Under the pieces are notes generated by a model, which was given only the letters and a program-made list of their open reading frames with translations, was not told where the DNA came from and made no database searches. This document shows, in pieces, positions 1 to 21,712 of a stretch of 64,000 nucleotides of DNA. This DNA is from Verrucomicrobiia bacterium (lineage in GTDB: Bacteria; Verrucomicrobiota; Verrucomicrobiia; Limisphaerales; UBA1319): NCBI GenBank assembly GCA_963664225.1, contig OY760937.1, forward strand, positions 1,599,236 through 1,663,235, given 5' to 3'. Each line of letters starts with the position of its first letter. Position 1 is the first letter of the stretch. Both the position numbers and the translations under genes were made by a program.

Positions 1-737
1 AACGGTTCAGGCGCGAAGCCATTTCACCAATCCAGAACAAACTTGGACAATTCCTGTTGAATCCGGTGATCCGCAACATTTTGGGGCAAGTCAGATGCAG
101 TGTGGATATTCCCTTCGTCATGGACAACCAGAGGATGTTCATCGCCAACCTATCGAAAGGTCGGCTGGGCCATGACAAAGCCAACCTCCTTGGATCCTTG
201 CTCACGACTCAATTTCAACTGGGCGCAATGGCCCGAGTGAACCGTCCCGAAGACGAACGCCAGGATTTTTACCTGTTCATCGACGAATTCCAGTCCTTCT
301 CCACCGATGCGTTTGCTTCAATTCTGGCCGAAGCCCGTAAATACCGATTATGCCTCACCCTCTCGCATCAATACATTGACCAGCTTCCGCTTCCCATCCG
401 CCAGGCGGTTTTTGGCAATGTGGGAACCCTGATTGCCTTTCGCATCGGCAATATCGATGCCGAGGTGATGGCCAAGGAGTTTGGAAACACATTTGCACCA
501 AGCACGCTTGCCGACCTTGGCCGATATGAAGCGGTCGTGAAGTTGCTGGAAAATGGAACAAACCGGGAACCATTCCTCGGTAAGATGCTCGCACCACTCA
601 AAAATTGCATTGGCCGGAAGGAAAAGCTCATCGCCCGTTCGCGCGAGCGTTTTGCCGCATCACGCTCGCGAATTGATGAAAAACTGAACCGGTGGATGGC
701 TTCGGCGAAAACTCCATTACCGACTGACGAATCTTGA
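1..737 (+). CDS. FtsK/HerA/T4CP-superfamily ATPase, C-terminal part (5' end lies left of the window)
   Basis: Frame 3 is open from the window edge; the track start at 57 is an internal TTG. It has Walker-B-like YLFIDEFQSF and ARKYRLCLTLSHQYIDQL motifs. By eye it is collinear with the ATPase half of the 1048-aa ORF at 6644..9790 (YWLYIDEFANF / ARKYRIGLTLAHHELHQL). Confidence 0.75.
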   Translation, partial: RFRREAISPIQNKLGQFLLNPVIRNILGQVRCSVDIPFVMDNQRMFIANLSKGRLGHDKANLLGSLLTTQFQLGAMARVNRPEDERQDFYLFIDEFQSFSTDAFASILAEARKYRLCLTLSHQYIDQLPLPIRQAVFGNVGTLIAFRIGNIDAEVMAKEFGNTFAPSTLADLGRYEAVVKLLENGTNREPFLGKMLAPLKNCIGRKEKLIARSRERFAASRSRIDEKLNRWMASAKTPLPTDES

Positions 738-768
738 AACAATCACCACTGGCTGGGTTCGTTCATCC

Positions 769-800
769 AAACTTGCCCGAAAGCGCAAATCCTGTCGTCT
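769..800 (+). promoter_or_regulatory. copy 1 of a 3x repeated ~30-nt intergenic motif (CTTGCCC..GCAAA..CGTCT)
   Basis: Sequence aaaCTTGCCCgaaagcGCAAAtcctgtCGTCT lies 35 nt upstream of the 835 start. It contains a small inverted repeat (TTGC/GCAA). Related copies are at 1741 and 3551. Confidence 0.4.
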
Positions 801-834
801 TCTTCCTTAGTTTGCCACCCGTTACGATGGACGG

Positions 835-1740
835 ATGGATTCCTCCCGTCTTCCCCGCTTCAAACGCTCTTCCGTCGTTGCCCCCATGCAACTGACAGAA
901 CGCGACCGCGAAATCATCCGGCTCGTGGATCGGCATCGTTTTCTCCATTCTTCGCAGATCGTTGCACTCATCGGCGGCAGTTCGCAGCAACTCTTGCGTC
1001 GATTGAAATTACTGTATCATCACGGCTTTTTGGAACGGCCACGCGCCCAGCTTGAATATTACCGCCAGAGCGGTTCTCATCACATCGTTTACGGCCTGGG
1101 AAACAAGGGTGGGACGCTTTTGAAGCAGGAGTTCGGGATTGCGCTTCGTCGAGTCTCTTGGGGTGAGAAGAACCGCGCCGTGGGCCGGATATTCCTTGAA
1201 CATGCGCTTTTGGTTTCAGATGTGATGGTGACGATTGAACTGGCTTGCCGAAAGCGCGGTTTCCAGCTTTTGACCGAAAAGGAGCTTGCACCGCCTGACA
1301 AGAAACAGCCGTTCCGATGGAGGGTGAACATCAACAACCGCTTGCAACTCGGTATCATCCCCGACCGCGTATTCGCCTTGGAGATTCCAGATGCGGACGG
1401 CAAACGTCAGCGCAGGTATTTCTTCCTTGAGGCCGACCGGGGCACCATGCCGGTCAAACGTCGAAACCTTTCCCAAACCTCGTTTTACCGCAAGCTCATT
1501 GCATATGAAGCCACCTGGTCGCAAAACCTGCATCGCACTCGATTTGGTTTCAATCGTTTCCGCGTGATCACCGTCACCACGAGTGCGGGACGACGGAATT
1601 CTCTGGTGGAGGCCTGTTCGGAACTGGAGCGTGGCCGAGGCTTGTTCCTGTTTACCGACCATTCCATTTTGTCCGATGATATATTTTCCTCTGCCTGGTT
1701 GACGGGCAATCCGGGTGGAACTGCCAGTTTGCTCGATTAG
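835..1740 (+). CDS. replication-relaxation family protein
   Basis: The N-terminal winged-helix-like LTERDREIIRLVDRHRFLHSSQIVALIGGSSQQLLRRLKLLYHHGFLERP is typical of the replication-relaxation family of plasmids and integrative elements. An alternative start exists at 886. Confidence 0.75.
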   Translation: MDSSRLPRFKRSSVVAPMQLTERDREIIRLVDRHRFLHSSQIVALIGGSSQQLLRRLKLLYHHGFLERPRAQLEYYRQSGSHHIVYGLGNKGGTLLKQEFGIALRRVSWGEKNRAVGRIFLEHALLVSDVMVTIELACRKRGFQLLTEKELAPPDKKQPFRWRVNINNRLQLGIIPDRVFALEIPDADGKRQRRYFFLEADRGTMPVKRRNLSQTSFYRKLIAYEATWSQNLHRTRFGFNRFRVITVTTSAGRRNSLVEACSELERGRGLFLFTDHSILSDDIFSSAWLTGNPGGTASLLD

Positions 1741-1773
1741 AAATCTTGCCCCAAACGGCAAATCTTGCCGTCT
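1741..1773 (+). promoter_or_regulatory. copy 2 of the repeated intergenic motif
   Basis: Sequence aaatCTTGCCCcaaacgGCAAAtcttgcCGTCT sits directly after the stop at 1740 and 99 nt upstream of the primase ATG. Confidence 0.4.
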
Positions 1774-1871
1774 AGTGAAGTCATCGACAAGGGCGATATG
1801 CTTCTCTTGGAAGCGGTTCGGTTCTTGAGCCGCATTTGTTCTTCACAATTAATCATAACCAAGGAAATACC

Positions 1872-2891
1872 ATGCCAAAATCATCGTTTGTTGACTTCAA
1901 GGCCGTCAAGGAGGCCATCACCATGGAGCAGGTGCTCGGACATTACAACCTGCTCGATCAGTTCAAGCGGAGCGGAGACAGCCTGAGTGGTCCATGTCCG
2001 ATCCACAAAGGCACCAATCCGACACAATTCCGGGTCAGTATCAGCAAAAACATCTGGAACTGTTTCAGCGAATGCAAACACGGGGGCAACACCCTCGACT
2101 TCATCTCCCGGATGGACAATGTGAGCGTCCACGCGGCGGCCTTAAACGCCATCGAATGGTTTCACCTTGATCCCGCAGCCGTGTCGATGGATTCCCCAAA
2201 GGAAGCCGGAGCTGAGCATGAAGACCCGAAGACTCACGATGTTCCCCGACCGACGCCAGTCACAAAGACAGCGCCGGTCCTGGAAAACAGCGCGCCGAAC
2301 AAGCCGTTGAAGTTCCGGTTGGAAAAACTGGAACGCGAAAATCCCTACCTTGTCGAACGCGGTCTCACGCCGGAAACCATTGCAGATTTCGACATAGGGT
2401 ACTGCGCCAAAGGCATGATGGCGGAACGGATCGCCATTCCCATCCGCAACGTGAACGGAGAGGTGGTGGCATATGCGGGACGCTGGCCTGGAATGCCAGC
2501 CGAAGGTAATCCCAAATACAAGTTGCCCCAGGGATTCAGGAAATCACTAGAGCTGTTCAACTTTGACCGAGCCATAAAAGAATCAGGGCCGCTGGTTATT
2601 GTCGAAGGCTTCTTTGGCTGTATGAAACTTCACCAGCTCGGTTGCCGCAAGGTGGCCGCCCTCATGGGCAGCACCCTCTCCACCGCGCAGGAGGAGTTGA
2701 TTCGCACTCACACCGACCACAACAGCCAAGTCATCGTCATGCTCGATGAGGACGAGGCGGGAAGGGCGGGACGTGAGGACATGGCCGTTCGTCTGGCCAA
2801 GTTCGTTTTTGTGAAGGTTCACACCTTCGGCAAGGACGGACAGCAACCGGATGACTTGAGCGCCGAGGAAGTGACAATGTTGTTAACCTGA
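1872..2891 (+). CDS. DNA primase-like protein (CHC2 zinc finger + Toprim domain)
   Basis: CHC2 finger CPIHKGTNPTQFRVSISKNIWNCFSECKHGGNTLDFI. Toprim-like LVIVEGFFGCMKL...VIVMLDEDEAGRAG. The ATG at 1872 is preceded by aaggaaa; the track start at 1836 is a TTG. Confidence 0.85.
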   Translation: MPKSSFVDFKAVKEAITMEQVLGHYNLLDQFKRSGDSLSGPCPIHKGTNPTQFRVSISKNIWNCFSECKHGGNTLDFISRMDNVSVHAAALNAIEWFHLDPAAVSMDSPKEAGAEHEDPKTHDVPRPTPVTKTAPVLENSAPNKPLKFRLEKLERENPYLVERGLTPETIADFDIGYCAKGMMAERIAIPIRNVNGEVVAYAGRWPGMPAEGNPKYKLPQGFRKSLELFNFDRAIKESGPLVIVEGFFGCMKLHQLGCRKVAALMGSTLSTAQEELIRTHTDHNSQVIVMLDEDEAGRAGREDMAVRLAKFVFVKVHTFGKDGQQPDDLSAEEVTMLLT

Positions 2892-2903
2892 AAGGAGACC
2901 ACC

Positions 2904-3233
2904 ATGGATGTTCATTGTTCCACCTGTGGCGAGCCATGGGATACATTTCATCTCTGGCACGAAGCCATATTCGAGACGGGATTGAGTTTTGAGGAAGCCG
3001 AAGCCTGGCGCTTTCTTCCCCGCTCTCTAAAACTAAACGACCGTTACCGGAAGGAATTTCGGGCAGTCGGCTGGGAATTCGGGCAAACGGTGATCAACGT
3101 CATTCATTGCCCGTGTTGTCCCAAGGATGCAAAACCCAACCCTGAGGCTGTAAAAACCAAGGCAGTCCTTGAACAGCTTTTGGGCAACGACCAGGATGGA
3201 TTGGCTGCGACCTTTGAGGATCATCACCTATGA
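2904..3233 (+). CDS. hypothetical Cys-rich (CxxC...CPCC) small protein
   Basis: A strong RBS (gaaaggaga) lies 6 nt upstream. Putative zinc-ribbon cysteines are HCSTCGEPW and IHCPCCPKD. The stop overlaps the next start (ATGA). No family was recognised. Confidence 0.6.
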   Translation: MDVHCSTCGEPWDTFHLWHEAIFETGLSFEEAEAWRFLPRSLKLNDRYRKEFRAVGWEFGQTVINVIHCPCCPKDAKPNPEAVKTKAVLEQLLGNDQDGLAATFEDHHL

Positions 3234-3517
3234 AAGCAGCCACCAATTGCATCGCTAGGTTCCCTCTTGGCCAACTCATGGTAACATCCAATGCCCTCAA
3301 ATACTTGACCCTGAATGAAATCATTTCCGGTGTCATTCGCCATCAATTGGGCGATTGGGGTGAGTTGAACAGTGACGACCGAATGGAGAACGATCTGAAC
3401 ATCGAAAGGGGGTTGATTCTCATATCGGTTTATCACGACAGCAATGACATGGCATTCTTTGTCATTACCGAGGCGGATCGGTCCGTCACAACGGTCTTGA
3501 TGCCGACCGATTATTAA
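3230..3517 (+). CDS. small conserved plasmid/ICE-associated protein (GDWG motif family)
   Basis: RHQLGDWGELNSDD and ITEADRSVTTVLMPTDY resemble, from memory, the small proteins often encoded next to ardC on conjugative elements. It is translationally coupled to the upstream ORF. Confidence 0.65.
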   Translation: MKAATNCIARFPLGQLMVTSNALKYLTLNEIISGVIRHQLGDWGELNSDDRMENDLNIERGLILISVYHDSNDMAFFVITEADRSVTTVLMPTDY

Positions 3518-3522
3518 TCACA

Positions 3523-3551
3523 AGAGCGATTCACGCGAATCGCTCTTTTTC
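3523..3551 (+). terminator. rho-independent terminator
   Basis: Perfect 10-bp stem AGAGCGATTC/GAATCGCTCT with a 4-nt loop, followed by TTTTT. Confidence 0.8.
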
Positions 3552-3579
3552 TTGCCCCATCAGGCAAAGAGAGCCGTCT
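3551..3579 (+). promoter_or_regulatory. copy 3 of the repeated intergenic motif
   Basis: Sequence CTTGCCCcatcagGCAAAgagagcCGTCT lies 81 nt upstream of the ardC ATG. Confidence 0.4.
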
Positions 3580-3659
3580 TTGGCGAAACAGCCGCATGCC
3601 ATACGCTACAGAGTGGGTTCAAATGGTTCTTTTAAAATCAACAACCACAGGAAGATATC

Positions 3660-4511
3660 ATGAATTATCAAGCGTATGAACGGATCACCGAGCGCATCAC
3701 TGCCTTGCTTCTGCAAGGCACGGTGCCCTGGCACAAACCATGGAAGGCAACAACCAGTTGGCCGCGAAATGGCGTTTCCCAAAAACCATATCGCGGCATC
3801 AATGTCTTTTTGCTTTTAACCATGAGTTACGAGTCCCCCATCTGGCTCACTTACCGTCAGGCCTTGCAGCTTGGCGGCTCTGTCCGCAAGGGTGAGAAAT
3901 CCTGTCCCGTTGTCTTTTGGAAACCCCTGAAGATTGCGGACAAGACATCGGGCGAAGAAAGGCAAATCCCTTTGCTACGCCTCTATCACGTCTTCAACGT
4001 CGCCCAATGTGACGGCTTGAAAGACTCACCACCCGTGACAAACGAAATTGTCGCGTCCAAACCGGCGGAGATTGTGGCAGCGATGCCTCAACCGCCCGCC
4101 ATCAAACACGGCATGAACTCCGCCTTCTATTCACCCCAGGAGGATTGCGTTGGAATGCCTTTACGCGAACGGTTCGAGAACGAGAATGGCTATTTTGCCA
4201 CCTTGTTCCATGAGCTCGTTCATTCGACCGGCCACGAAAAGCGGTTGAACCGGGCAACGCTCGCCGAAAACAATGGATTCGGTTCCGATCCATACTGCAA
4301 GGAGGAATTGATTGCGGAAATGGGGGCGGCGTTTCTTTGCGGCCAGGCCGAGATTGTCGAGCGGACGATTGATAGCTCCGCCGCTTATATCCAGAACTGG
4401 CTTCAGCGCCTGAAGCAAGACAAGAGCCTGATTGTGCAGGCTGCAGCGCAGGCACAGAAAGCCGTTGACTTCATTCTTGGCCGGACGGAAAGCGAGGTAT
4501 TCCATGACTGA
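3660..4511 (+). CDS. ardC: ArdC-like antirestriction protein (ssDNA-binding N-domain + zincin metalloprotease)
   Basis: N-terminal GTVPWHKPW...PYRGINVFLL (DUF1738-type) and C-terminal HELVHSTGH metalloprotease motif. Confidence 0.9.
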   Translation: MNYQAYERITERITALLLQGTVPWHKPWKATTSWPRNGVSQKPYRGINVFLLLTMSYESPIWLTYRQALQLGGSVRKGEKSCPVVFWKPLKIADKTSGEERQIPLLRLYHVFNVAQCDGLKDSPPVTNEIVASKPAEIVAAMPQPPAIKHGMNSAFYSPQEDCVGMPLRERFENENGYFATLFHELVHSTGHEKRLNRATLAENNGFGSDPYCKEELIAEMGAAFLCGQAEIVERTIDSSAAYIQNWLQRLKQDKSLIVQAAAQAQKAVDFILGRTESEVFHD

Positions 4512-4737
4512 ATTGGAAAAAGCAGTCAGACGACGCACCCGTCTGCCCTTTGCCCACTATCGCAAACGCATCGTGGTCATCCTTGAACCGGGTGACTGTG
4601 TGACCATGCGATTGGAACGGACGCGCACTGTGTTTCGCGCCCCCATCTCGGCATTGTATCGGCAGATGGTGGAGTGGCACGTTGCCGCGATCCAGCGCGA
4701 GAAACAGCGGGAGCGAAAACAAAGGAGGACCGTATGA
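4504..4737 (+). CDS. hypothetical small basic protein
   Basis: The ATG at 4504 overlaps the ardC stop by 8 nt, and the stop overlaps the radC ATG (ATGA). Placement is operonic. No family was recognised. Confidence 0.5.
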   Translation: MTELEKAVRRRTRLPFAHYRKRIVVILEPGDCVTMRLERTRTVFRAPISALYRQMVEWHVAAIQREKQRERKQRRTV

Positions 4738-5195
4738 AAGACTTCAATCCGAAGGAGTTCAAGCTCGTCGCACTGCGTGAATGTCCGACACCCGAACAGA
4801 TGCAGGTCTGCGATACACCGGAAAAGGCAGTCGAATATTGGACAGCACATATTGGCAATTCGGCCCAATTCAACCAAGAATGTGAAAGTTTCTTCGTGTT
4901 AGTCCTGAACACGCGGAGACGTGTCAGAGGCCATCACTTGGTTTCAACGGGCACGATGGATACCATTCTGGTCCATCCGAGAGAAGTCTTCCGCATTGCC
5001 ATTATCGCCGGAGCATCCGCTGTCGTGCTCATGCACAATCACCCGTCGGGTGAACCGCAGCCGTCCGAGGCGGATATCAAAGTGACTCGCGATTTAATTC
5101 GCGCCGGTGAGTTGGTTAAAATTGAGGTGCTTGATCACGTTATCGTGGGCAATCCAAACCATTGCTCATTACGCGAGCTTGGCTATTTTTACTAG
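4734..5195 (+). CDS. radC: RadC-like JAB/MPN domain protein
   Basis: JAMM motif VVLMHNHPSGEPQPSEADIKVTRDL. RBS aaggagga lies upstream of the ATG at 4734. Confidence 0.9.
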   Translation: MKDFNPKEFKLVALRECPTPEQMQVCDTPEKAVEYWTAHIGNSAQFNQECESFFVLVLNTRRRVRGHHLVSTGTMDTILVHPREVFRIAIIAGASAVVLMHNHPSGEPQPSEADIKVTRDLIRAGELVKIEVLDHVIVGNPNHCSLRELGYFY

Positions 5196-5207
5196 CTAAA
5201 GCCATCC

Positions 5208-5239
5208 AAACCCCGTCCATTTTTAGGCCGGGGTTTTTC
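5208..5239 (+). terminator. rho-independent terminator
   Basis: Stem AAACCCCG (5208-5215) pairs with CGGGGTTT (5229-5236), followed by a T-run. Confidence 0.7.
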
Positions 5240-5425
5240 ATACTCACAGTAACCAATCACTTCGTCTGTGATACGGATTTTATTCCCAATACCACTGAAG
5301 TTCACAAATAAATTGACATTCGGAAATCGTCATGAAATATATCGCTGACATCCGGTAATTCAATGGGTAACCAATCCCAATCTGTGCATGAAGTTTATGC
5401 ACCAAAAAAAAGGAAGGGAAAAACT

Positions 5426-5896
5426 ATGTCTGAGCCCATCGTTCCACCTACTGAACCTGTTCAGGTTCAAAATGAAGTATCATACAACATTCCAACAACC
5501 CAGGCCTCACCAGCCTTGTCTGTGAGCCTTTTGGAGATATTTCTTGCCATAGGCTTGGGCTTTTGCTTTTTCCTGCCTTGGATCAAAATCTTAGGCGTTG
5601 GAGTCTCCGGCTTTCAAATACAAAAGCTGGGCCAAGACGGCCTAATCTTTTGGCTCATTCCCGTTATGAGTAGCATTGCCGTTTTGGCTGGAATGATCGG
5701 AAAGAGCCAGAAAGACGCTGCCATGCTTGCTGGTATCACGCCATTCGGCATTGTCATATATTTCTGCATTCAAGCTGGGAATAATTATCAGCAAATCATT
5801 GATGCATTGGGAGCCGGGGCCTGGGTGGCTTTGGTCATCGGCTTCCTGATGATCGTCCTTTCCTTCAATTTAAAGAATGCAAATGCCAAATCATAG
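5426..5896 (+). CDS. hypothetical multi-pass membrane protein (about 4 TM)
   Basis: The ATG at 5426 follows aaaaggaaggg. Hydrophobic segments include LLEIFLAIGLGFCFFLPWI, LIFWLIPVMSSIAVLAGMI, ITPFGIVIYFCI and AWVALVIGFLMIVLSF. The track start is 5363. Confidence 0.65.
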   Translation: MSEPIVPPTEPVQVQNEVSYNIPTTQASPALSVSLLEIFLAIGLGFCFFLPWIKILGVGVSGFQIQKLGQDGLIFWLIPVMSSIAVLAGMIGKSQKDAAMLAGITPFGIVIYFCIQAGNNYQQIIDALGAGAWVALVIGFLMIVLSFNLKNANAKS

Positions 5897-5914
5897 ATCA
5901 GGGGAAGGACGATT

Positions 5915-6637
5915 ATGTTTTCATTCTTTCGTAAAAAGGCCGATGTATTGAGCCACTGGTACGTTTTGGTGGAAAACTTTAAGCTTTCATCCCAAGACTT
6001 TTATAACGAAATCGAAACTGCATTGAAGGAACGTGAGGTGCCGGGGCTTGGCTTTTCTAAGGTTGAGTTTTCCGAAGGTGGCCTCCTTTCAGCCAATCGC
6101 ATCTATCTTCGCATGGTCCGGGAACGGCTGGTTTTTGATGTCTGCGCCGCTCCCTTTGGCACCGGCTTTTTCTTCTCTTGCCGATTTGCTGAGATTCCCG
6201 CTGTGATTACTGTCTGGCAACTCATTGTCGTATTCGCGGGCCTGTTTTTAGGCGCGATCCTTTCCTTTTTTATTCTAAGCAAACTCTTAGGAGTGTTGGG
6301 TTTAGTGCTCTTCCCATTTGCTTTAATCGTCGGCCTCTTTCTCATGATTTACGTCATGAGAAACGCTGTGTCCATGGGGCTTAGAGATTTGGATGCCTCC
6401 TTAATTAAGTCCCCCGTGCTTGGTCCGATCTACGAAAACTGGTTTCGCAAGGAAACATATTATCGCCACGACACCCGTCTCATGTATTGCGATACGGTGA
6501 ATTCCATTGTGAAGACAAGAGTGGAGGAAACCACGGGCTCGAAAGGAATAAAATTGGTTCGTTTTAACGAATTCAATCCCGTTCTGAGCGACCTTTACAA
6601 ACCGACCATCGTGGCCTTGCCCAAGGAACCCTCCTGA
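5915..6637 (+). CDS. hypothetical membrane protein (soluble N-domain, central TM hairpin, soluble C-domain)
   Basis: Lies 18 nt after the previous stop. TM stretch: VWQLIVVFAGLFLGAILSFFILSKLLGVLGLVLFPFALIVGLFLMIYVM. No family was recognised. Confidence 0.65.
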   Translation: MFSFFRKKADVLSHWYVLVENFKLSSQDFYNEIETALKEREVPGLGFSKVEFSEGGLLSANRIYLRMVRERLVFDVCAAPFGTGFFFSCRFAEIPAVITVWQLIVVFAGLFLGAILSFFILSKLLGVLGLVLFPFALIVGLFLMIYVMRNAVSMGLRDLDASLIKSPVLGPIYENWFRKETYYRHDTRLMYCDTVNSIVKTRVEETTGSKGIKLVRFNEFNPVLSDLYKPTIVALPKEPS

Positions 6638-6643
6638 CGTCAT

Positions 6644-9600
6644 ATGTCCCGGCTCGACGAGCAATTGAGCGAACGGTTCCACCTCTGGGAACTGCGCGGA
6701 CGTGGCTGGCAGGTCTTTCCCGAACCGGTGTATCCCGAGCCGCCTTTTACCCCGTTTCTCGGCCATTATCTCCCCGATACCCCGCCAGTTGATGACGGAG
6801 CCAGGCCAACCTTTTTGAGTTCGCTGGTGCGGAAACTGAGCCGCACGTTAAGCACCGAGACTCCACCGATTGCGGTTGCGCCCGAGCCCGAAATTGAACC
6901 GGAGCCAACGCCCCTCATTCGTGAATCGCTTGTGGAATTGCAGGCATCCCTCCCGGACAAACTCGACATCTCCAAGGATGCTTTTGAACAGTTCCTTTTG
7001 AATCTGTCCCTCTGTCGCGAACCCATTGCCTTTGAACTGCTTGGCACGCACAAAAAAGTCACAACCCAATTCGTCGCCGGTGCAACTGACGCCCCGCTCC
7101 TCCGCCGACAGTTGCAGGCATATTTTCCTGAAGCCGTCTTTGTCTCCCGTGAAGGTGGCTTGGAACAGGCTTTGAATGCAAGCCAGGGCGACGAGGTTTT
7201 AGCGGTGGAGTTTGGCCTTAAAGAAGAATTCATGCTGCCTTTGGCAAGCGGCAAGCTTGATCCATTCATCGGCATCGTGGGTGCCTTGGCTGAGTTGCAG
7301 CCCGGAGAACTCGGACTTTTCCAAGTCCTGTTTCAACCGGTGCAGCATCCCTGGGCGGAAAGCATCCTGTATTCCGTGACTCACGCGGACGGCAAACCGT
7401 ATTTCATCAATTCTCCAGAACTGGCAGGGGCAGCCAATGCCAAGGTTGCCCGTCCCCTTTACGCTGCCGTTGTCCGCATCCTGCTTCGCACCGGGGACTA
7501 TGATCGTTTGCTCCAATTAGCCCGTGATCTGGCCGGATCATTGCGCGTATTCGCGCACCCCAGCGGCAACGAACTCATCCCGCTTCACAATGATGATTAC
7601 CCTTTCGAGGACCACATTGAAGACGTGCTTCGTCGTCAGACGCACAGGACAGGCATGCTACTCAACACCGACGAACTCATCGGCTTTGTCCACCTGCCAT
7701 CAAGCGCCGTCCGTTCACCGGTCTTTGAGCGGCAAGCGGTCAAATCCAAGGCGGCACCGGCCATTACCCGGCAACAAGGGCTATTGCTTGGTCATAACGA
7801 CCATGCCGGCCAGACGGTTGAAGTCAGGTTGTCCGCTGAACAGCGCACCCGGCATACGCATATCATCGGTGCCAGCGGCACAGGCAAGTCCACACTGCTT
7901 TTCAATCTCATCCGGCAGGACATTGAGAACGGTGAAGGCGTGGCCGTCCTTGATCCTCACGGGGACTTGATAGACCGGATTTGTGGCATCATTCCGCCGG
8001 AGCGGATTTGCGACGTGGTGTTGCTTGATCCTTCGGACGAATCAAATTCGGTTGGATTCAATATCCTGTCGGCTCACAGCGATCTTGAGAAAAACCTGCT
8101 GGCCTCTGACTTGGTTGCCGTGTTCCAACGCCTCTCGTCTTCATGGGGCGACCAGATGAACAGCGTGCTCTCAAACGCCATTCTCGCGTTTCTGGAAAGC
8201 GACCGGCGTGGCACCATCGCTGATTTGCGCCGGTTCCTCATTGAAACGCCGTTTCGGAATGAGTTCCTCAAATCAGTGAAGGATTCCGAGATCGTATATT
8301 ACTGGCAGAAAAGTTTTCCGCATCTCTCCGGCAACAAATCCATCGGTTCCATCCTGACCCGCTTGGACACCTTTCTGGCCCAAAAGCCCATCCGGCTCAT
8401 GGTCTCACAGCCAGAGAACCGGCTGGACTTCGCGCATATCATGGACAGCGGGAAAATCTTCCTGGCCAAATTGCCAGAGGGATTGCTTGGCCGGGAAAAT
8501 TCGTATCTGCTTGGCACCCTCCTCGTGTCCAAGTTCCAGCAGATTGCCATGAGTCGCCAGGCCCAACAGATCGCCGCGCGCCGCGACTACTGGCTCTATA
8601 TCGACGAGTTTGCCAATTTCATCACGCCCTCAATGGCGGAGATATTGTCGGGAGCACGCAAGTATAGGATTGGGCTTACGTTGGCCCATCACGAATTACA
8701 CCAGTTACAGAGGAATCCCGAAGTTGCCAGTGCTGTCATGTCGCATCCCTACACCCGCATCGTGTTCCGGGTTGGCGACGACGATGCCAAAAAACTGGCC
8801 GAGGGATTCTCATATTTCGAGGCCAGGGATTTGCGGAACTTGGAGGCCGGGCAGGCCATTGTTCGCGTGGAACGCAGCGATTTTGATTTCAATTTGTCGG
8901 TCCCGCTTCCAGTCGAGCCAGACAGGGACACAGCCATCCTCAGACGACAGGAAATCATTACCGTTTCAAGAAAAACGTACGGCACACCACGCGCCGACGT
9001 TGAGGCGATGTTCGCAAAATCGCATGAGAGTAAGACAACGATTGAACCCTCCATTGAAGCCCCTGCGCCAGCACCGACCAAGCCGGTCGCCAAAACACCG
9101 AAAGCGACCATAATTCCAGAGGCAGCAGCAGCGCCACCGCCCCCTGTTGTGATCCAGCCGCCACCAGTTACGGAAAAACCGAAAGCGATGGCATCGCCAG
9201 TCAAGGTTGAGACCCAACCTCCGGTTGTTAACCGTCCACAGGAAACACGCGATCTGGGCCGGGGCGGAGCGCAGCATCAGGCCATACAGAAACGCATCAA
9301 AGAGGCGGCGGAGAAACTTGGTTTCCGCAGCGTCATTGAAAAACCGATTCTCGGTGGTCAGGGCAGTATCGATTTGTGGCTGGAACGCCCTGGCCAAACC
9401 ATCGCCTGCGAAGTTTCCATTTCCACCACCATTGACCATGAGGTTGGCAATGTCGCGAAAGGTCTGAAGGCTGGAGTCCTCAACGTGGCGGTAATTTGCC
9501 TGGATGAAGAGCGTTTGCGGAAGATCGAGGCGGCGGTTTCCGGCAGTCTTGGCCCTGAACTCGCGGCACAAGTGGTGTATTTCCAGCCCGATTCGTTTAT

Positions 9601-9790
9601 CGCCCATTTGAAATCGTTACCGCTGCCGGTCCCCAAGGATTCCACAACCATTCGTCGGGGGTATAAAATACGACGCTCGGCACCGGCGCTTACCGCCGAG
9701 GAACAAAAGCAACGCGAAGACCTGGCCAATCAAATGATGGCCGAGGCTATGCAGCAGAAGCGCAAGGCTCATTCAAAGAAGATTCAATAA
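6644..9790 (+). CDS. large FtsK/HerA/T4CP-like ATPase with unknown N-domain, Pro-rich linker and C-terminal nuclease-like domain
   Basis: Walker A GASGTGKST, DPHGDL, Walker B YWLYIDEFANF and ARKYRIGLTLAHHELHQL. It has no TM segment. The Pro/Ala-rich linker runs ~9050-9245. The C-terminal GGAQHQAIQKRIKEAAEKLGF..IDLWLERPGQTIACEVSIST resembles a PD-(D/E)xK/CoiA-like core. It starts 6 nt after the previous stop. Confidence 0.85.
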   Translation: MSRLDEQLSERFHLWELRGRGWQVFPEPVYPEPPFTPFLGHYLPDTPPVDDGARPTFLSSLVRKLSRTLSTETPPIAVAPEPEIEPEPTPLIRESLVELQASLPDKLDISKDAFEQFLLNLSLCREPIAFELLGTHKKVTTQFVAGATDAPLLRRQLQAYFPEAVFVSREGGLEQALNASQGDEVLAVEFGLKEEFMLPLASGKLDPFIGIVGALAELQPGELGLFQVLFQPVQHPWAESILYSVTHADGKPYFINSPELAGAANAKVARPLYAAVVRILLRTGDYDRLLQLARDLAGSLRVFAHPSGNELIPLHNDDYPFEDHIEDVLRRQTHRTGMLLNTDELIGFVHLPSSAVRSPVFERQAVKSKAAPAITRQQGLLLGHNDHAGQTVEVRLSAEQRTRHTHIIGASGTGKSTLLFNLIRQDIENGEGVAVLDPHGDLIDRICGIIPPERICDVVLLDPSDESNSVGFNILSAHSDLEKNLLASDLVAVFQRLSSSWGDQMNSVLSNAILAFLESDRRGTIADLRRFLIETPFRNEFLKSVKDSEIVYYWQKSFPHLSGNKSIGSILTRLDTFLAQKPIRLMVSQPENRLDFAHIMDSGKIFLAKLPEGLLGRENSYLLGTLLVSKFQQIAMSRQAQQIAARRDYWLYIDEFANFITPSMAEILSGARKYRIGLTLAHHELHQLQRNPEVASAVMSHPYTRIVFRVGDDDAKKLAEGFSYFEARDLRNLEAGQAIVRVERSDFDFNLSVPLPVEPDRDTAILRRQEIITVSRKTYGTPRADVEAMFAKSHESKTTIEPSIEAPAPAPTKPVAKTPKATIIPEAAAAPPPPVVIQPPPVTEKPKAMASPVKVETQPPVVNRPQETRDLGRGGAQHQAIQKRIKEAAEKLGFRSVIEKPILGGQGSIDLWLERPGQTIACEVSISTTIDHEVGNVAKGLKAGVLNVAVICLDEERLRKIEAAVSGSLGPELAAQVVYFQPDSFIAHLKSLPLPVPKDSTTIRRGYKIRRSAPALTAEEQKQREDLANQMMAEAMQQKRKAHSKKIQ

Positions 9791-10217
9791 AGGCTGCAAA
9801 ATCTTGATTTTGCAGCAGTTTGACTGAGGTCCAAACTGCGTTTGGAATGGGCAGGGAGAAAAACATTTTCACATCCCGTCGCAAGCCGTCCTGTTTGGCC
9901 AGAAGTTCGTCCTGAATGGCTTCATGCACACTGTTTGTGTGGGAAATGACCATGGTGACGAACAACTTTTCCTCTGGCGTGACGGGCTGGCTTTCCAAAT
10001 CCACTGACGGATCGAGTACGCGGGCCAGTTTTGGTTGATGGAGGAATTCTTTCCATACATCACGGTAATTAGCGGTGATGGCCAGGAGATTGGCAATTCG
10101 ACGGGTCTTGGTTTCCGAATGAAGTGAGACAGCCGTAAACAAAAGGCTGCCGACAATGCCGACTGTGCTTAATAGATCGAACCAATTTTGAACAACCCAT
10201 TGTCCCATGTCCCCCAT
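9747..10217 (-). CDS. hypothetical protein with N-terminal TM helix
   Basis: Likely start is MGDMGQWVVQNWFDLLSTVGIVGSLLFTAVSL (ATG at 10217 or 10208). Its 3' end overlaps the convergent ATPase ORF by 44 nt. It may be DUF4760-like (unverified). Confidence 0.5.
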   Translation of the reverse strand: MGDMGQWVVQNWFDLLSTVGIVGSLLFTAVSLHSETKTRRIANLLAITANYRDVWKEFLHQPKLARVLDPSVDLESQPVTPEEKLFVTMVISHTNSVHEAIQDELLAKQDGLRRDVKMFFSLPIPNAVWTSVKLLQNQDFAAFIESSLNEPCASAA

Positions 10218-10242
10218 TTTAGCATATGGGGGCCAGGAAACG

Positions 10243-10488
10243 CTATGGACGGTCGGGGATATCGTGCTTGGCGTTGACCAAGAGATTGCGCGGCAACCGG
10301 ATGATTCGTTCATCGGGACCACAGCCCGCCGTTCGTGGCAATTTGGCGATGGCAGCAGCCGTGATGTCGATACCGATCACTGCGAAATCGCCATTTTCAA
10401 GTTCCCAAATATCTGGGCAACCCCAGCAGCCAACCGTTTGGGCACCGTTGGCATGAGGGTCTGGGCCAATGCGTTTCTTAAAGTTCAT
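10243..10488 (-). CDS. hypothetical small protein (81 aa)
   Basis: The ATG at 10488 has a strong RBS (ggaggt). Sequence MNFKKRIGPDPHANGAQTVGCWGCPDIWELENGDFAVIG... No family name was recalled with confidence. Confidence 0.6.
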   Translation of the reverse strand: MNFKKRIGPDPHANGAQTVGCWGCPDIWELENGDFAVIGIDITAAAIAKLPRTAGCGPDERIIRLPRNLLVNAKHDIPDRP

Positions 10489-10500
10489 ACCTCCACTATA

Positions 10501-10527
10501 CTTGACTATAGTAAAGTAACTGTCAAG
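10501..10527. promoter_or_regulatory. palindromic candidate operator in a divergent promoter region
   Basis: CTTGAC-N15-GTCAAG lies between the divergent starts at 10488 (-) and 10552 (+). Confidence 0.4.
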
Positions 10528-10551
10528 CCGCATTTTGGATAAAGTTCAAAT

Positions 10552-10809
10552 GTGCCAAAAATCGGCCATTACGAAGCCGTCAGTGCGGAGATCATTCGCC
10601 TTTTGCGTGAGGAGCGCGAAACGCGCAAGATCACGAACTATATGGTCGCGCAGAAATCCGGCGTTTCTGAATCCATGTTAAGCCTTGTGGATCGAGGACT
10701 TCGGAATCCTTCCATGGAAATCATTTTACGGATCGCTGATGCCGTCGAAGCAGATCTTCCTGCCTTGATCAAAAAAGCCCATACCACCGTTTCGAGCAAA
10801 GAAAAGTGA
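10552..10809 (+). CDS. XRE-family helix-turn-helix regulator
   Basis: HTH motif ITNYMVAQKSGVSESMLSLVDRGLRNPSMEIILRIADAV. GTG start. Confidence 0.8.
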   Translation: MPKIGHYEAVSAEIIRLLREERETRKITNYMVAQKSGVSESMLSLVDRGLRNPSMEIILRIADAVEADLPALIKKAHTTVSSKEK

Positions 10810-10838
10810 GCTGTTTTCAGATCGAATCGCTCTACGTT

Positions 10839-11063
10839 TCAATTTGGAATAACGGGCCTGACGTTTTGGCATCTGAACATTTCAATGATCTTGATGCGCA
10901 GTTTGGTGAGGCTCAAAAACGGATATTCCTCAGCTTGATGAATGGCGCTCTTGGTAACACCCAGTTGCCGTGCAACTTCTGCTTTAGATATGCGCGCCTG
11001 TATTCGGGCTGCCTTTGCCAAGGATGCCAGTTCATTCTCTTCCAACAATCGTTTTTGCCGCAC
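10839..11063 (-). CDS. small HTH (XRE-like) DNA-binding protein, start uncertain
   Basis: HTH motif LAKAARIQARISKAEVARQLGVTKSAIHQAEE. The ORF is open up to 11201, but that would overlap the recombinase start. A GTG at 11063 gives a typical ~75-aa protein. Confidence 0.55.
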   Translation of the reverse strand: MRQKRLLEENELASLAKAARIQARISKAEVARQLGVTKSAIHQAEEYPFLSLTKLRIKIIEMFRCQNVRPVIPN

Positions 11064-11145
11064 GAACCGATTCAACCACAATGGGTAACGCGAGGAAATG
11101 CTATTCTCTTGAAACGAGATTGGCTTTTCAATATGAAGTAGTGCT

Positions 11146-12648
11146 ATGAAGGACCATAGTGCCTTGAATAAACCGGTGGGCATCTGGATTCGCGTTTCCA
11201 CAGAGGATCAAGCCCAAGGTGAGAGCCCGCAACATCACGAGTCTCGTGCCAGAGAATACGCCAAATTCAACGACTGGTCGGTGAAAGAGGTTTACAATCT
11301 CGCGGGCGTCTCAGGCAAGACGGTCATGGAGCATCCCGAAGCCAAACGAATGCTCGCTGATATAAAGCGAGGCCACATCACCGGCCTCATTTTTTCCAAA
11401 CTCGCCCGTCTGGCAAGAAACACCAGGGAGCTCTTGGATTTCGCTGATTTCTTCCGTGAGCAGCATGCCGATATGATCTCGATCCAAGAAAAGATCGATA
11501 CGAGCACCCCTGCCGGTCGCCTTTTTTACACAATGATCGCCGCTCTCTCTCAGTGGGAACGGGAAGAAATTGCGGATCGGGTCAAAGCATCAATCAAAAC
11601 GCGAGCTAAACTTGGGAAAAGTTTGGGTGGCCCTGCCCCATTTGGTTATATGTGGAAGAATAACAGGCTCATTCCTGATCCTGCCGAAGTGCCAATCCGC
11701 AAACTCATGTATGAACTCTTTGCGGAACAGAAACGTCTTAAAGGCGTCGCTCGCCACTTGAACCAATCTGGTTATAGAACCAGAAAAGGTGCCCACTTCA
11801 CGGATACGACCGTTCTGCGACTCATCCAAGACTCAACCGCCAAAGGAATATATCGGGCAAACCACACTTACAGGGACAACAAGGGTAAACTCCGTACAAA
11901 ACCTGAATCCGATTGGATTCAAACACCTGTAGAACCAATCATTTCAATAGAGCTTTGGGATCAATGCAATGAATTGCTGGAAAAGCGCAAAACCATGCGT
12001 CCCCTTGGCCCTAAACCAGTCCACCTTTTTGCTGGTCTTCTGTATTGTGGCTGCGGTCAGAAAATGTATGTGTTTTCGCGTACGCTAAAATACATCTGCC
12101 ACAAATGCCGCAACAAGATCCCCATGGAAGACATTGAGGCAATTTTCCGGGAGGAGCTTGAAGATTTCTTTGTATCAAAAGAAAAAATCACAGCTCACTT
12201 GGCGAGTGGCAACGTTCACCTTGCCGACAAGAAAGAGCGGCTGATGGTCCATGAACGACAATTGGAAAAGATCAGAGTGGAAATGCGCAAAGTTTACCAA
12301 CTCTACCAAAATGATCAAATTGACCCCGAAGGCTTCGGAAAACTGTATCGCCCATTGGAAGACCAAGAACGATCGCTTGGTATTGAATTAGCGAAATTAC
12401 AGGGCGAGCTGGCAGCCCTCCAAATGCACCAATTGTCTGCCGACGAAGTGATCACCGAAGCCATCGATCTTCACCGACAATGGCCAAAGTTCACTCAAAA
12501 TGAAAAACGCCGAATCATCGAAAGTATCACTGAAAAGATTGTAGTGAGCGGCGACGAAATAAACATAACCCTCTGCTATATGCCATCTTGTGAAGAACTC
12601 ACAAAAAGGCAACGAAACCTCTGGGATTCATCGCCGCAATCAGCATGA
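11146..12648 (+). CDS. large serine recombinase (integrase)
   Basis: Resolvase catalytic domain [12 protein letters not shown]...[13 protein letters not shown]. Also a recombinase domain, a Cys-rich zinc ribbon ([15 protein letters not shown]) and a coiled-coil region. The last 8 codons and the stop lie in comM-derived DNA. Confidence 0.9.
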
Positions 12649-13675
12649 ATTGTGATGGGAATGTCATGGACCCCGCGGCGCGCGAAATGGTGACGCACCC
12701 CTCTTCCAAAGGCTGACGCAAGGTCTCCAGAACGTTGCGTTTGAACTCCGGCAATTCGTCCAAAAAGAGCACGCCATGATGCGCGATGGAAATTTCCCCG
12801 GGCGTCGGATTGATGTTGCCTCCGAGCAATCCGGCATCGCTGACCGTATGATGGGGGGCTCGAAAAGGACGCTTGGTAAGCAACGCCTGTCCCGGCGGAA
12901 GGATGCCCACGATGCTGTGAATCTTGGTCGTCTCCAGGGCTTCCTCCAGCGTCAACGGCGGCAGTATGGACGGCAGCCGCTTGGTCAACATCGATTTGCC
13001 CGTCCCCGGCGGCCCAATGAGAAGCGCGTTATGCCCGCCTGCGGCGGCGATTTCCAGGGCGCGCTTCACCGATTCCTGCCCTTTCACATCCGCAAAATCC
13101 AATTCATCTTCCACCGGTTGGGCGAAGAGCGCGGCGATATCCACACGCGTGGGCGGAATTTGGAGACGCCCCTCGAGAAACTCCGCAGCCTCGCGCAAGT
13201 TGTGAACGCCAATCACACACAACCCCTCCACCACCGCCGCTTCGAGCGCATTTTCAGCGGGCACCAACACCCCGGCCTTGCCTTCAGCCCGCGCGCGCAG
13301 CGCCACTGGCAGAACCCCCTTGACCGCGCGCACGCCACCCGTCAGCGCCAGTTCACCCACAATCGCGAAATTCTCCAACTGGTCCGTCTCGATTTGTTCG
13401 CTCGCGGAAAGCAGGCCCAGGGCAATGGGCAGATCGAAGCTCGGACCCTCCTTCTTCACATCGGCGGGCGCCAGGTTGATCGTGATCCGCCCCATCGGAA
13501 ACGTGAACCCGGAATTGGCCATTGCAGTCGCCACCCGATCCCGCGATTCCTTCACCGCGGCATCAGGCAGCCCTACAATCACCACCAGGGTATCACCAAA
13601 GCCCGCATTGACCTCCACCTCTATGGGATAGGCGTCAATACCGGCCAGCGCCGCCGAACAAACCTTGGCCAACAT
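12599..13675 (-). pseudogene. comM: comM/yifB (Mg-chelatase-like ATPase), 5' ~350 codons only, interrupted by the mobile element
   Basis: [22 protein letters not shown]..., Lon-protease-like N-domain, Walker [20 protein letters not shown] and FMLIAAMNP. The frame then runs into unrelated RGFVAFL* where homologues continue with CPCG. Confidence 0.85.
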
Positions 13676-14627: not shown

Positions 14628-16793
14628 AGGGTCCGAACGGATGCCGGTGCCACGCGAAAACGTCGGCGGGCGGGTTTGCGACGGTAGCGGCTTCGCGCCA
14701 GAGTGGGTGGAATCGAGTACCATATCGTTCCCGGACCCGGGATGCGTGATGGGGGATTCAGGCCGGTTTTTTACCGCCCAGAAAAACAGGATTCCGGCGC
14801 CAGTCGTTAATGCGAGGATCCACAGCGCAGTGATGGACGCACTTGGTCCCGGGAGACCGTCCGCCTCGGCTACGTAAGTTTGGTAAGTGATGTTCTGGCG
14901 GGTCAACTCTCCCAGGGTGAATTCGTTCGCGGGCGCAATGAAGTCCGGAGTGCGAAGGTCGGAGATCCACAGTTTTCTGGAACCATCCATATACTCGAAC
15001 ACTTCGAATCGGGCGTTTTTGTGCCGGGCGACGATGCCCGGTACGCGATCGGCGGAGATGGTGCGCACCTTCCAGTCCATGGTTACCCCCAGAAAAACGG
15101 CCAGTGCGACCATTCCGCACGCGGCCAATGCGGCAAAAGCTTTATCCACACGATGTTCATTAATCAGGTCCGTGGCGGAGAGCGGTCCGGATTGGCGATC
15201 ATGACTTCCGCGCAACAATGTCACCGCGCCAGCCACGAGGATGAACCAGCAGAATGGAATCAGCAGCCACACGGACCACCACCCTGGACGCGTCATGCTG
15301 AGCAGGGGCGCATCCCGGTTTTCAACCTGCGTCTCATGGCTGATTCCCTTCTCGGCCAGCAAGGCCATCGTGGTGTTCTCTGCCGGAGCGACGAACGGGG
15401 TCACCTTCCTATTCTCCAGCAGATCACCATGGAGCGTGCGGACTCCTCTGGCATTTTGGAGCAGCTTAAAGCGGAATTTCCCCACCTGCGAATCGGCGAT
15501 ACGGCTTTGTATTTCACTGGTGGACATGTAGCGAGGTACCGGAAAGTGCGTGGAAGAAATGCGACTGGACGCCCAGCAGAAAAGGCCCAAATAAAAGAGA
15601 GCCACTGTCATGGCCGTCATCGCCCAGGCAGTGATGAATTTTGGAGATGGTCTGGAGATGGAACCGTCTTTAACCCCTTCAGGAACGGTTCGACATCTTC
15701 GTTGCCAAATCCAGATGCCAAGGGATAGCGGCACCACCCCAAACATAAAGATCGGCAGACAGACGTTCAGCCAAATATTCAACGTTATTAAGCCTCTGGC
15801 CGCGGATAGACCGGTCACTTTGGCGAGCGAGACCGTCCCTAGCGGAAGGAGACAAAAGAAAAAGGACATGCTGATTCCCATATTGCGCCAAAAAGTGGCT
15901 ACAGACCGACGCGCCCGCTCACTATTCCGACTATCCCCTCCCATTTTAAATCCAATGTATCCACCTAAGGACAAAGCCGCGACAACCCAGCCAATCATGC
16001 CCATGACAAAATTGGCAACGGTTTGCAGAAACCCGACGGAGCTCGTTGTCTTGGCGGCCACGCTACCATGTTGCGCCAGCGCCGTGCCGGCCGTCGCCGC
16101 CTTGGCGGTCGTGGCCAGCAGGGGCAGAGCCGCAATCACTCCGAACGTGAAGTCCTTGCCCGGACGGGTTTGCTTCAACGCACCGGCGACAAACGCGAGG
16201 AATTCTTCCTGCAGGAGTTTTCGCCCGCGGGATAGTCGTTGTTTTACCGCATCCTCGCTGAGACCTAAATCCTGCGCCACGGCCCCGATGGATTGTTGTT
16301 CGCGATAGAACAACACCAACGGCTCGCGATAAATTTCCGGGATGCGTTCGAGCGAGCGCCAAAGAATCGCCTTTTCCTCGTCGCTGATGACTTGATCGAA
16401 AGGCAGCGGTTCTGGTGAGACCCATTCGTCCATTGCCTCCAGAGATTCAGCGGCATGATCCGGCTCCCGTCCCTGGCGTCGAAACTCTTTGCTGATAAGC
16501 GAACGCGCAATGCTGCACAGCCAGGGCCGCAACTTGGATGGTTCACGCAATTCTGAAAGCTGCTTCCAGGCCGCCACAAAGGTCTCCTGGGCCAGGTCTT
16601 CGCTCCGGCTCACGTCACCAGTGGCACAGTACGCCAGCGACGAAATCAAGATTTGATAGCGTTCAACAATCAGCCGGAAGTGATCCCGATTCCCGCTCAG
16701 GCTCTCGGCCACTAGCTCGGCGTCGTTGATATCTCCCCTCTGCATCGCTTCGCTCGTCATCATATCACCCTGTAAGAACCCGAAAAGCCTCAT
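13893..16793 (-). CDS. chimeric ORF: ECF sigma-70 domain + multi-TM (anti-sigma-like) region + embedded prepilin-type/DUF1559-like domain
   Basis: Sigma region 2 ([14 protein letters not shown]) and region 4 ([39 protein letters not shown]). These are followed by many hydrophobic helices. The pilin-like motif [25 protein letters not shown] sits 244 aa from the C-terminus. The frame is uninterrupted for 966 codons. Confidence 0.7.
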
Positions 16794-16825
16794 GAGGTGA
16801 CAAACAATCGAAGAATCCGCTCCCT

Positions 16826-17005
16826 GGAAAACGCGAACCCGGAATTGGCCATCGCGGTCGCCACCCGATCCCGCGCTTCCTTCACCGCGGCATCAGGCAG
16901 CCCCACAATCACCACCAGGGTATCTCCAAAGCCCGCATTGACCTCGACTTCAATCGGACAGGCATCGACGCCGTTCACAGCGGCGGAAAAAACCCGGGCT
17001 AACAT
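16826..17005 (-). repeat. comM 5'-end repeat, copy B (diverged; first ~59 codons only)
   Basis: [59 protein letters not shown] matches resident ComM at 51 of 59 residues. Upstream DNA is unrelated to copies A and C. The frame ends in a TGA that overlaps the ATG at 16793. Confidence 0.8.
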
Positions 17006-17326
17006 AGGGGCGATTCTGGGGAAAAGCAGGGATTCGGAAAGGACAAAGTAGCAGGCGGGGGATGGCCACAAAAATGCACAAATGGTGCAAGAAATAAGAG
17101 GAATGCAAAGGAACCCAGAAAAGCGAGGGTTCAGTCGCTGGGAAAAACGCCCGACGCCATGGTCCAACCTTGTTCCCATATCCCACTTGCCTGCTTGTTC
17201 TGGGAGTTCTGAACAACCCTAACTGGTGAACTTTAGCATACATCAAAAACGAGGACACTTGCTTGAATCCGACAAAGGGCTCGGTATTCTTCCGGTTGGT
17301 GCGGCCTTACTAGCCGCCAGAACAAA

Positions 17327-21480: not shown

Positions 21481-21712
21481 GCAATGGAATGGGGTGGAGC
21501 TGCGCCGAAACACGCCACAGTTCGTGGTGCGGCGATGCAGCCTGGATTTTGTGAATGCGGTAATGAGCTGTGAGTTTTCATATCCACCGCACAAAGTCAA
21601 GCCCAGCCTGCGCTGAATGGAATATCAAAAAGAAGCAATAAGGCAAAAAATAACAAGGACGTTGCTTTTTTTCTTGCATGTAAACGGCATGTTCATCTTA
21701 GATGAAACCATC

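Follow-up and report, generated by a model that had tools for sequence, protein, structure and literature searches.

A recombinase attachment site that appears to lie inside the recombinase's own reading frame: an integrative element in comM of a Verrucomicrobiia bacterium

A recombinase element in comM

The stretch analyzed here (hereafter, the window) comprises 64,000 nucleotides of a Verrucomicrobiia bacterium, in which a gene for a large serine recombinase (LSR) runs into an interrupted comM gene. In this integrated state, the LSR open reading frame (ORF) extends over 11146..12648 on the plus strand and encodes 500 amino acids (aa). In Pfam it matches Resolvase (PF00239, 4e-33, residues 13-158) and Recombinase (PF07508, 1.3e-19); the zinc ribbon PF13408 scores 21.8 bits, under the cut-off of 25.3, but its four cysteines (CGCG...CHKC) are nevertheless present and, like the catalytic motif with the serine nucleophile, are legible in the sequence. 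Relatives in the PDB are the catalytic domain of TP901-1 Int and entries whose deposited names are Resolvase homolog YokA / site-specific recombinase, and Integrase. A zinc ribbon/coiled-coil region is also apparent in the AlphaFold model of the homologue P0242, with long helices at 336-470 followed by two strands at 471-485. Judging from its sequence, the product of 11146..12648 appears to be a large serine recombinase with a complete core. No candidate for a recombination directionality factor (RDF) of this LSR was identified.

On the minus strand, the ORF list, Pfam and tblastn delimit a 358-aa ORF at 12599..13675, which matches ChlI and positions 1-158 of the 207 positions of Mg_chelatase, and which corresponds to the N-terminal two thirds of ComM/YifB. 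When the closest intact ComM is used as a tblastn query, its residues 1-351 align with 13675..12623 at 96.6% identity and homology ends at 12623. A first-pass annotation of this DNA had described the ORF as the ComM N-terminal part up to FMLIAAMNP and placed the junction at ~12620-12625, which agrees with our results (core at 12621-12622). The last seven residues (RGFVAFL) and the stop are the antisense of the LSR codons for TKRQRNL. The same annotation expected a CPCG motif after AAMNP; this was mistaken, as both of the closest intact ComM proteins, P0002 (508 aa, 97% identity) and P0003 (94%), continue with TPDGKMP, and CPCG at that position is confined to more distant phyla. A Thr codon (ACN) follows AAMNP in 31 of the 32 intact comM genes of the clade (species-representative genomes). 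The nearest homologues with a name belong to Limisphaerales, Pedosphaera and Verrucomicrobiia.

The 3' part of comM was retrieved by a protein search with the C-terminal 157 aa of P0002 as a query: it is P0121 (162 aa, MATSRSPDGKMP...), located at 10001..10489 of locus L083. The ComM fragment of the window (P0001) and P0121 are each recorded on a 5,783,426-bp contig, and the genes located 3' of P0121 on L083 (CHRD, epimerase, ABC transporter) follow the order found after the intact comM in the relative L085. For these two reasons, we place both junctions in one genome. The two junction sequences and P0121 bear out the claim that a serine-recombinase element splits comM, and dispose of the objection, raised along with it, that the 3' part might be missing. 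Motif scans (including L001) detected no comM 3' part in window positions 1-12600 or in the 4.9 kb leftward, where the ENA contig ends. When contigs were scanned with the ComM C-terminus, all comM genes obtained were intact, with at most 73% identity, the split genes being missed because full-coverage matches ranked higher; the same scan supplied the genes for the comM codon statistics. Instead of the one-polypeptide ComM architecture (ChlI N-domain, AAA+ Mg_chelatase, Mg_chelatase_C), the genome thus presents a 5' ORF and a separate 157-aa C-terminal part, and comM is probably inactive while the element occupies it.

Several other features involve comM. Directly downstream of its 3' part lies a group II intron reverse transcriptase (RVT_1, GIIM; L083 10877-12562), without counterpart in the syntenic region of the close relative L085. 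The 5' end of comM is present in three direct copies in the window: the real comM start (13485-13675), an 85% copy fused into a 129-aa ORF at 16790..17179 (16815-17005) and a copy whose first 34 codons are identical to P0002 (19014-19204). An ORF of 966 aa (sigma-70/N_methyl) and a GH43 gene lie between the copies, and the triple start suggests earlier rearrangements or insertions there. In addition, six related elements (L141, L142, L150, L154, L158 and L159) carry a full-length comM (aa 1-507, ~75% identity) just inside their left end, directly after the helix-turn-helix (HTH) ORF described below and oriented as the split host gene, which may be a replacement copy; the element of the window has no such copy behind its HTH ORF.

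At the codon level, LSR residues 1-492 are encoded by the element, whereas the host contributes residues 493-500 (WDSSPQSA) and the stop, as antisense of comM. Leu492 corresponds to 12619-12621, Trp493 to Ala500 to 12622-12645 and the TGA stop to 12646-12648; the DNA from Trp493 to the stop corresponds to the comM codons for FMLIAAMNP read on the opposite strand, and the TGA derives from the comM Phe-Met codons TTCATG. The coordinates are those of the first-pass annotation, which had already seen that the LSR stops within comM DNA and that its last eight codons are comM antisense. The P arm of attR (12598..12620, plus strand, CTCACAAAAAGGCAACGAAACCT) codes for LTKRQRN(L) and is identical or near-identical in the intact attP of L087, L090 and L161 and in the attR of L171 and L176. 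It is followed by the putative crossover dinucleotide CT (12621..12622; AG in the comM sense), the only sequence common to both junctions at the place where the family has GT, and by the B' arm (12623..12648), which is comM DNA and provides the LSR tail codons and the TGA. At attL, the core copy is located at L083 10016-10017 (AG on the plus strand of L083), within a shared CAG triplet (10015-10017).

In the comM sense, the 5' junction reads ATGAATCCC-AG-AGGTTTCGTTGCC and the 3' junction GCAACGTCGCGC-AG-TCCGGATGG, while the intact attB of a relative reads ATGAATCCG-AC-GCCCGATGG; the insertion point is the codon after Pro351. Reconstructed in silico, attP is ...CTCACAAAAAGGCAACGAAACCT-CT-GCGCGACGTTGCCATCTTGTGACC... 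and attB is ...GGCATTTTTCCATCCGGA-CT-GGGATTCATCGCCGCAAT.... The attP site forms an imperfect inverted repeat, CACAAAAAGGCAAC-N16-GTTGCC..., around the 2-bp core, and its P and P' arms have CACAA.A.GGCAAC in common. Short imperfect-dyad sites with the same 2-bp core at attL and attR are what is expected of a serine integrase.

The core dinucleotide itself varies. Whereas this element has CT, GT is found at 68 of 70 related junctions and also in L176, the closest element (LSR 96% identical), a difference which is silent in the LSR (Leu CTC versus CTG). A CT core implies a Ser codon (AGT) rather than a Thr codon in comM before insertion, which is seen in none of the 32 intact clade genes. For the closest element (P0241, tail NLW...), a CT core was considered and rejected, as its DNA has GT; since the first core base is the wobble position of Leu492, the protein tail is uninformative on the core. 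A 12-nt direct repeat, GCCATCTTGTGA, flanks the reconstructed attP (window 12583-12594; L083 9995-10006, reverse complement), coding for MPSCE in the LSR and LPSCD on the other side, and may be due to chance.

The arrangement recurs well beyond this genome. We surveyed the tails of the 120 closest LSR clusters: about 100 end eight residues past ...RNL, and there are at least 40 versions of this host-dictated tail. A few stop after 0-6 residues, four or five run 40-104 aa into comM antisense, and three continue into an HTH module. An element-encoded stop at the end of the LSR core is found in no member. Similarly, among the 120 best ComM hits, about 35 are 358-aa fragments ending in NPTGFVAFL or a close variant, and many comM 3' fragments start with (K/M)ATSRT-PDGKM. 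Proteins with the NPTGFVAFL ending are themselves insertion products, which answers the concern that comM might natively end in this way. The LSR family is widespread in Verrucomicrobiota, nearly always at the same comM codon.

The recombinase frame across attP

Excision was carried out in silico by joining the window (...12623) to the reverse complement of L083 (...10014). In the joined sequence the LSR frame is open for 183 further codons, and a protein of 675 aa results in place of one of 500 aa. In the added part, HTH_3 is matched in two stretches (5.8e-10) and HTH_31 at 1.7e-9, i.e. two XRE-type HTH domains.

Contiguous versions of this gene are found in nature. With the 675-aa reconstruction as a query, we identified P0242 (676 aa, 61% identity, 96% coverage), P0301 (683 aa, 98% coverage, present on 5 contigs) and P0287 (596 aa), and L161 is a fourth contig in the attP state. 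No gap is needed across the junction, where the reconstruction reads TKRQRNL-CATLPSCD and the homologues read TKWQRNL-LATLPFD, TKRQRNL-LATLPCC and TKRQQNL-CAMLPFCD, and the DNA of the homologues has an intact attP (for example CTCACAAAAAGGCAACGAAACCT-GT-TGGCGACGTTGCC in L087). A second integrated element is located on a 1.05-Mb contig, and the positions of its LSR (710062-711558), comM 5' part (711524-712600) and comM 3' part (642858-643340) give it a length of ~68 kb. It has GT at both junctions and its reconstruction is in frame, with 703 aa and the same two HTH domains. As contiguous attP-state homologues occur in four independent contigs and the ~68-kb element rebuilds in frame, the long LSR-HTH ORF is, on sequence evidence, a real gene.

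These results extend the initial proposal. That excision would complete the LSR 3' end with DNA from the other element end is supported by both the in-silico attP and the contiguous homologues, and the coupling of recombinase form to integration state is evident from the structure of the gene. The proposed swap of C-terminal tails was right in that the form of the protein changes; the swap was expected to be small, whereas the excised form has 183 aa more, including two HTH domains. Nor do free homologues already end in WDSSPQSA, as attP-state homologues read on into the HTH domains.

In the AlphaFold model of P0242 (mean predicted local distance difference test score, pLDDT, of 71.7), the last LSR strands (471-485) are followed by a linker (486-530), HTH1 (536-587) and HTH2 (619-675). 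Residues 470-530, which include those encoded by attP, have a pLDDT below 50. According to this model, attP sits in the part of the gene coding for a predicted disordered linker between the LSR core (~485 aa) and the HTH module.

In the integrated state, the HTH module is encoded by a separate ORF of 180 aa at attL (L083 9465..10007, minus strand), which the source annotation does not call as a gene. The only start codon ahead of its first HTH is a TTG, eight bases from the core; relatives mostly have ATG. A metagenome scan with the HTH module yielded 80 loci. The HTH ORF adjoins the antisense comM 3' part at the identical codon in 42-44 of 70 distinct junctions and stays intact in 75 of 78 instances.

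Some HTH ORFs have other surroundings. Ten or eleven of them (L102, L131, L143, L147, L148, L149, L152, L153, L156 and L157, and L129) retain the P' arm up to the GT core without comM or LSR upstream. What precedes them is a different conserved block of ~45 nt, ATCACAAGTTCATGCAACTGACC...AAAGTCG, beyond which the sequence varies; within the block, a CACAA...GCAAC motif is present, whose distance from the core exceeds that in the P arm by ~10 bp. Relatives of the HTH module (P0363, P0365, P0371, P0380 and P0394) include proteins of 600-1050 aa with 6-12 tandem XRE-type HTH repeats. Matches to the HTH extension in the representative library were considered as LSR fusions and rejected, since the long ones checked are such poly-XRE-HTH repeat proteins; that search therefore gives no count of fused forms.

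A second attP-like palindrome is located at L083 9693-9716, exactly 300 nt into the HTH ORF. Its form is AAAGGCAAC-N12-GTTGCCTTT (consensus from L091-L170), versus N16 in attP, and it falls in the stretch coding for the linker between HTH1 and HTH2. Synonymous positions of its arm codons are 98-100% fixed among 67 distinct sequences, while those of other conserved codons are mostly 29-92% fixed. The palindrome is missing in the divergent L087 and L090. It may serve the recombinase as an accessory site or operator.

Weighing the readings of the divided gene

We favor the following explanation, to which we assign a probability of about 0.8. The window would contain attR, the right end of an element placed into comM by its LSR. 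As attP lies within the recombinase's own frame, an LSR-linker-(HTH)2 gene, integration would cut this gene in two: the integrated element would make only the LSR core with a short host-dictated tail (8 aa here), and the 180-aa HTH part would be stranded at attL, tens of kb off and without its upstream gene. Excision would rejoin the halves into one ORF, of 675 aa here. An element whose gene is split and rejoined at attP would therefore encode two recombinase isoforms that report the integrated versus the circular state. Of this explanation, the anatomy of the gene, its reconstruction and the existence of contiguous versions are demonstrated here.

What the isoforms do is a more tentative matter, and we consider a regulatory role of the switch possible rather than probable. 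The HTH module would be a repressor-like DNA-binding domain acting only, or differently, in the circular element, where it might regulate element genes or aid attP recombination; if it is repressor-like, the full-length protein may tie recombination to the regulation of element genes. For excision, the element would have the truncated core at its disposal, and it would make use of the difference between the isoforms. A more specific version, which we regard as doubtful, is that the two isoforms constitute a built-in directionality and state switch of a serine integrase. The circle would then be the sole source of full-length LSR-(HTH)2, whose HTH domains would bind DNA of the element, with attP and the conserved attP-like palindrome 300 bp into the HTH-coding region as candidate sites. 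Such binding would drive integration, or license it, and reset the expression of element genes, while the tail-less chromosomal core would be the excision-competent form. If so, this would be a natural recombinase reprogrammed by the recombination event itself, and an LSR using an accessory site.

Several observations weigh against the explanation that we favor. In the ENA assembly, the two junctions lie on two separate contigs, and their spacing and relative orientation on the 5.78-Mb record are presumed. The attP-state P0301 is found on a 247-kb contig and is thus not obviously a free circle. Similarity of the extension to solved repressors of the XRE/Cro/C2 type is weak (best E = 1.2e-4; 0.027 for the ICEBs1 Xre regulator). 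Finally, an ATG is present two codons past the junction in most relatives and a TTG at codon +3 in all, so that the HTH protein could also be translated alone, and about 25 of the 70 distinct HTH ORFs have different surroundings and no LSR upstream.

The last two observations are also the basis for regarding the locus as two separate genes abutting attP, with a ~490-aa core working in both states and an HTH regulator with an ATG or TTG start of its own; that the frame continues across attP would then be a tolerated by-product of att arms packed into coding DNA. At the ~25 loci with free-standing HTH ORFs, stops are found just upstream, and in a second genome the HTH part is annotated as a 153-aa gene. 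We nevertheless judge this arrangement unlikely: termination of the core is decided in every member by the host DNA that follows, the frame is kept in every reconstruction and in the four natural attP contigs, and a promoter scan found no sigma-70-like promoter upstream of the attL ORF (weak negative evidence). Moreover, the ATG and TTG lie inside the GTTGCC arm, in which synonymous positions are frozen by constraint at the DNA level, so that their conservation is no indication of use as start codons.

A recombination site within the recombinase ORF is also found in SSV-family integrases of archaea (PMC7253208), and integration could likewise be suicidal here, the cut destroying a function required for mobility and leaving the element trapped in comM and decaying; several tails do read on aberrantly (P0245, P0260). 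This is very improbable, as the cut lies beyond all canonical LSR domains, more than 100 integrated LSR clusters with 70-80% identity are full-length, and the detached HTH ORF is so rarely disrupted. The same site is moreover occupied in many different hosts, which argues for ongoing mobility. As all data come from metagenome-derived assemblies, the contiguous 676-683-aa ORFs could in principle be chimeric and the comM split misassembled. Such an artefact is hardly credible, since attL and attR have only 2-3 bp in common, too little to mislead an assembler, and dozens of independent samples and assemblers give the same junctions, with P0301 alone recovered on its 5 contigs.

The element and its place among known systems

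The right part of the integrated element occupies window positions 1..11145 and runs past the window start. It encodes a coupling-protein-like fragment (57..737), a Replic_Relax relaxase (835..1740, 6.5e-24), a primase (1836..2891), ArdC (3660..4511), RadC (4674..5195) and a coupling protein (6644..9790, TrwB_AAD_bind 1.7e-13), followed by two HTH genes (10552..10809, plus strand; 10839..11201, minus strand), and this gene order recurs in L001, L171 and L176. A relaxase and a coupling protein thus lie inside the att boundaries, and the element is integrative and probably conjugative or mobilizable. No type IV secretion genes were found in the ~27.5 kb of the element that were read (window 1-12620, L001 1-4894 and L083 1-10014), the middle of the element lying outside. 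About 8-9 kb inside the left end, Cas1 (6.6e-89) and Cas2 genes are present (L084 2-1366), separated from attL by genes for an MBL-fold protein and a 1098-aa protein, and the element may carry a CRISPR adaptation module. In the host flank, an ORF at 21617-23353 with GmrSD_N and HNH nuclease domains likely encodes a type IV restriction enzyme.

Serine integrases are prized for working with a short attP, a short attB and one protein, with a separate factor determining the direction. In Tn916-like conjugative transposons and at the circle junction promoters of insertion sequences, joined ends create an expression unit that is missing when the element is integrated; a promoter or transcript is assembled there, whereas here it is the protein-coding frame of the recombinase.

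Insertion of LSR elements into comM/yifB is already established. Integrative elements control the integrity of a number of genes, and yifB has been listed as one of them (PMC7192596); 12.4% of site-specific LSRs hit an 'ATP-dependent protease' gene family (bioRxiv 10.1101/2021.11.05.467528), which we infer to be ComM. The present element shares with these the enzyme class, simple inverted-repeat att sites with a 2-bp core and a target that is interrupted and not restored; in the described elements attP lies beside the recombinase gene, whereas here it lies inside the extended LSR-HTH frame.

The closest analogues with attP in coding sequence use tyrosine integrases. One of them is the integration-dependent immunity of actinobacteriophages, in which attP lies inside the repressor gene and integration yields a shorter, active repressor. 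As summarized in PMC8092301, citing Broussard et al. 2013, this system resembles ours in having attP in an element coding sequence, C-termini that differ between the free and integrated states, a stop that the host DNA provides at the junction and the involvement of a DNA-binding protein of XRE type. According to the same summary, it differs in that the integrase is of the tyrosine type and the cut gene is the repressor, from which only 20-35 residues, often an ssrA-like tag, are removed; here, a serine recombinase is cut and 183 residues with two folded domains are lost. In the present element, attP is thus in the recombinase ORF, from which the HTH part becomes detached, its own C-terminus being left untrimmed. 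Similarly, archaeal viruses and plasmids with SSV-type ('suicidal') integrases have their recombination site within the ORF of the integrase, which is divided upon integration (PMC7253208), as observed here. Those enzymes are archaeal tyrosine recombinases and it is the catalytic protein that is broken, whereas here the LSR core is complete and an accessory module is removed. Finally, engineered phiC31 integrase-RDF fusions, in which the partner is a known directionality factor driving excision (PMC5737554), also carry an extra domain on the LSR C-terminus, near the zinc-ribbon/coiled-coil region that sets directionality; these are synthetic, while the domain here is an HTH module predicted to be present only in the excised state. 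An LSR ORF spanning attP, or one with a detachable HTH module, was not found in the full-text literature, in which subscription journals are mostly uncovered, so that absence is unproven.

A recombination site inside the integrase gene of a widespread natural family would represent a new regulatory layout for serine integrases, in which the enzyme loses a two-domain DNA-binding module at each integration and regains it at each excision. Such a layout would offer a direct and testable means of studying how a mobile element senses whether it is integrated. It also bears on LSR mining, as the annotated 500-aa proteins would be truncated products with host-coded tails, whose native form can only be obtained by rebuilding attP. 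In Verrucomicrobiota, this LSR family is also a major disruptor of comM.

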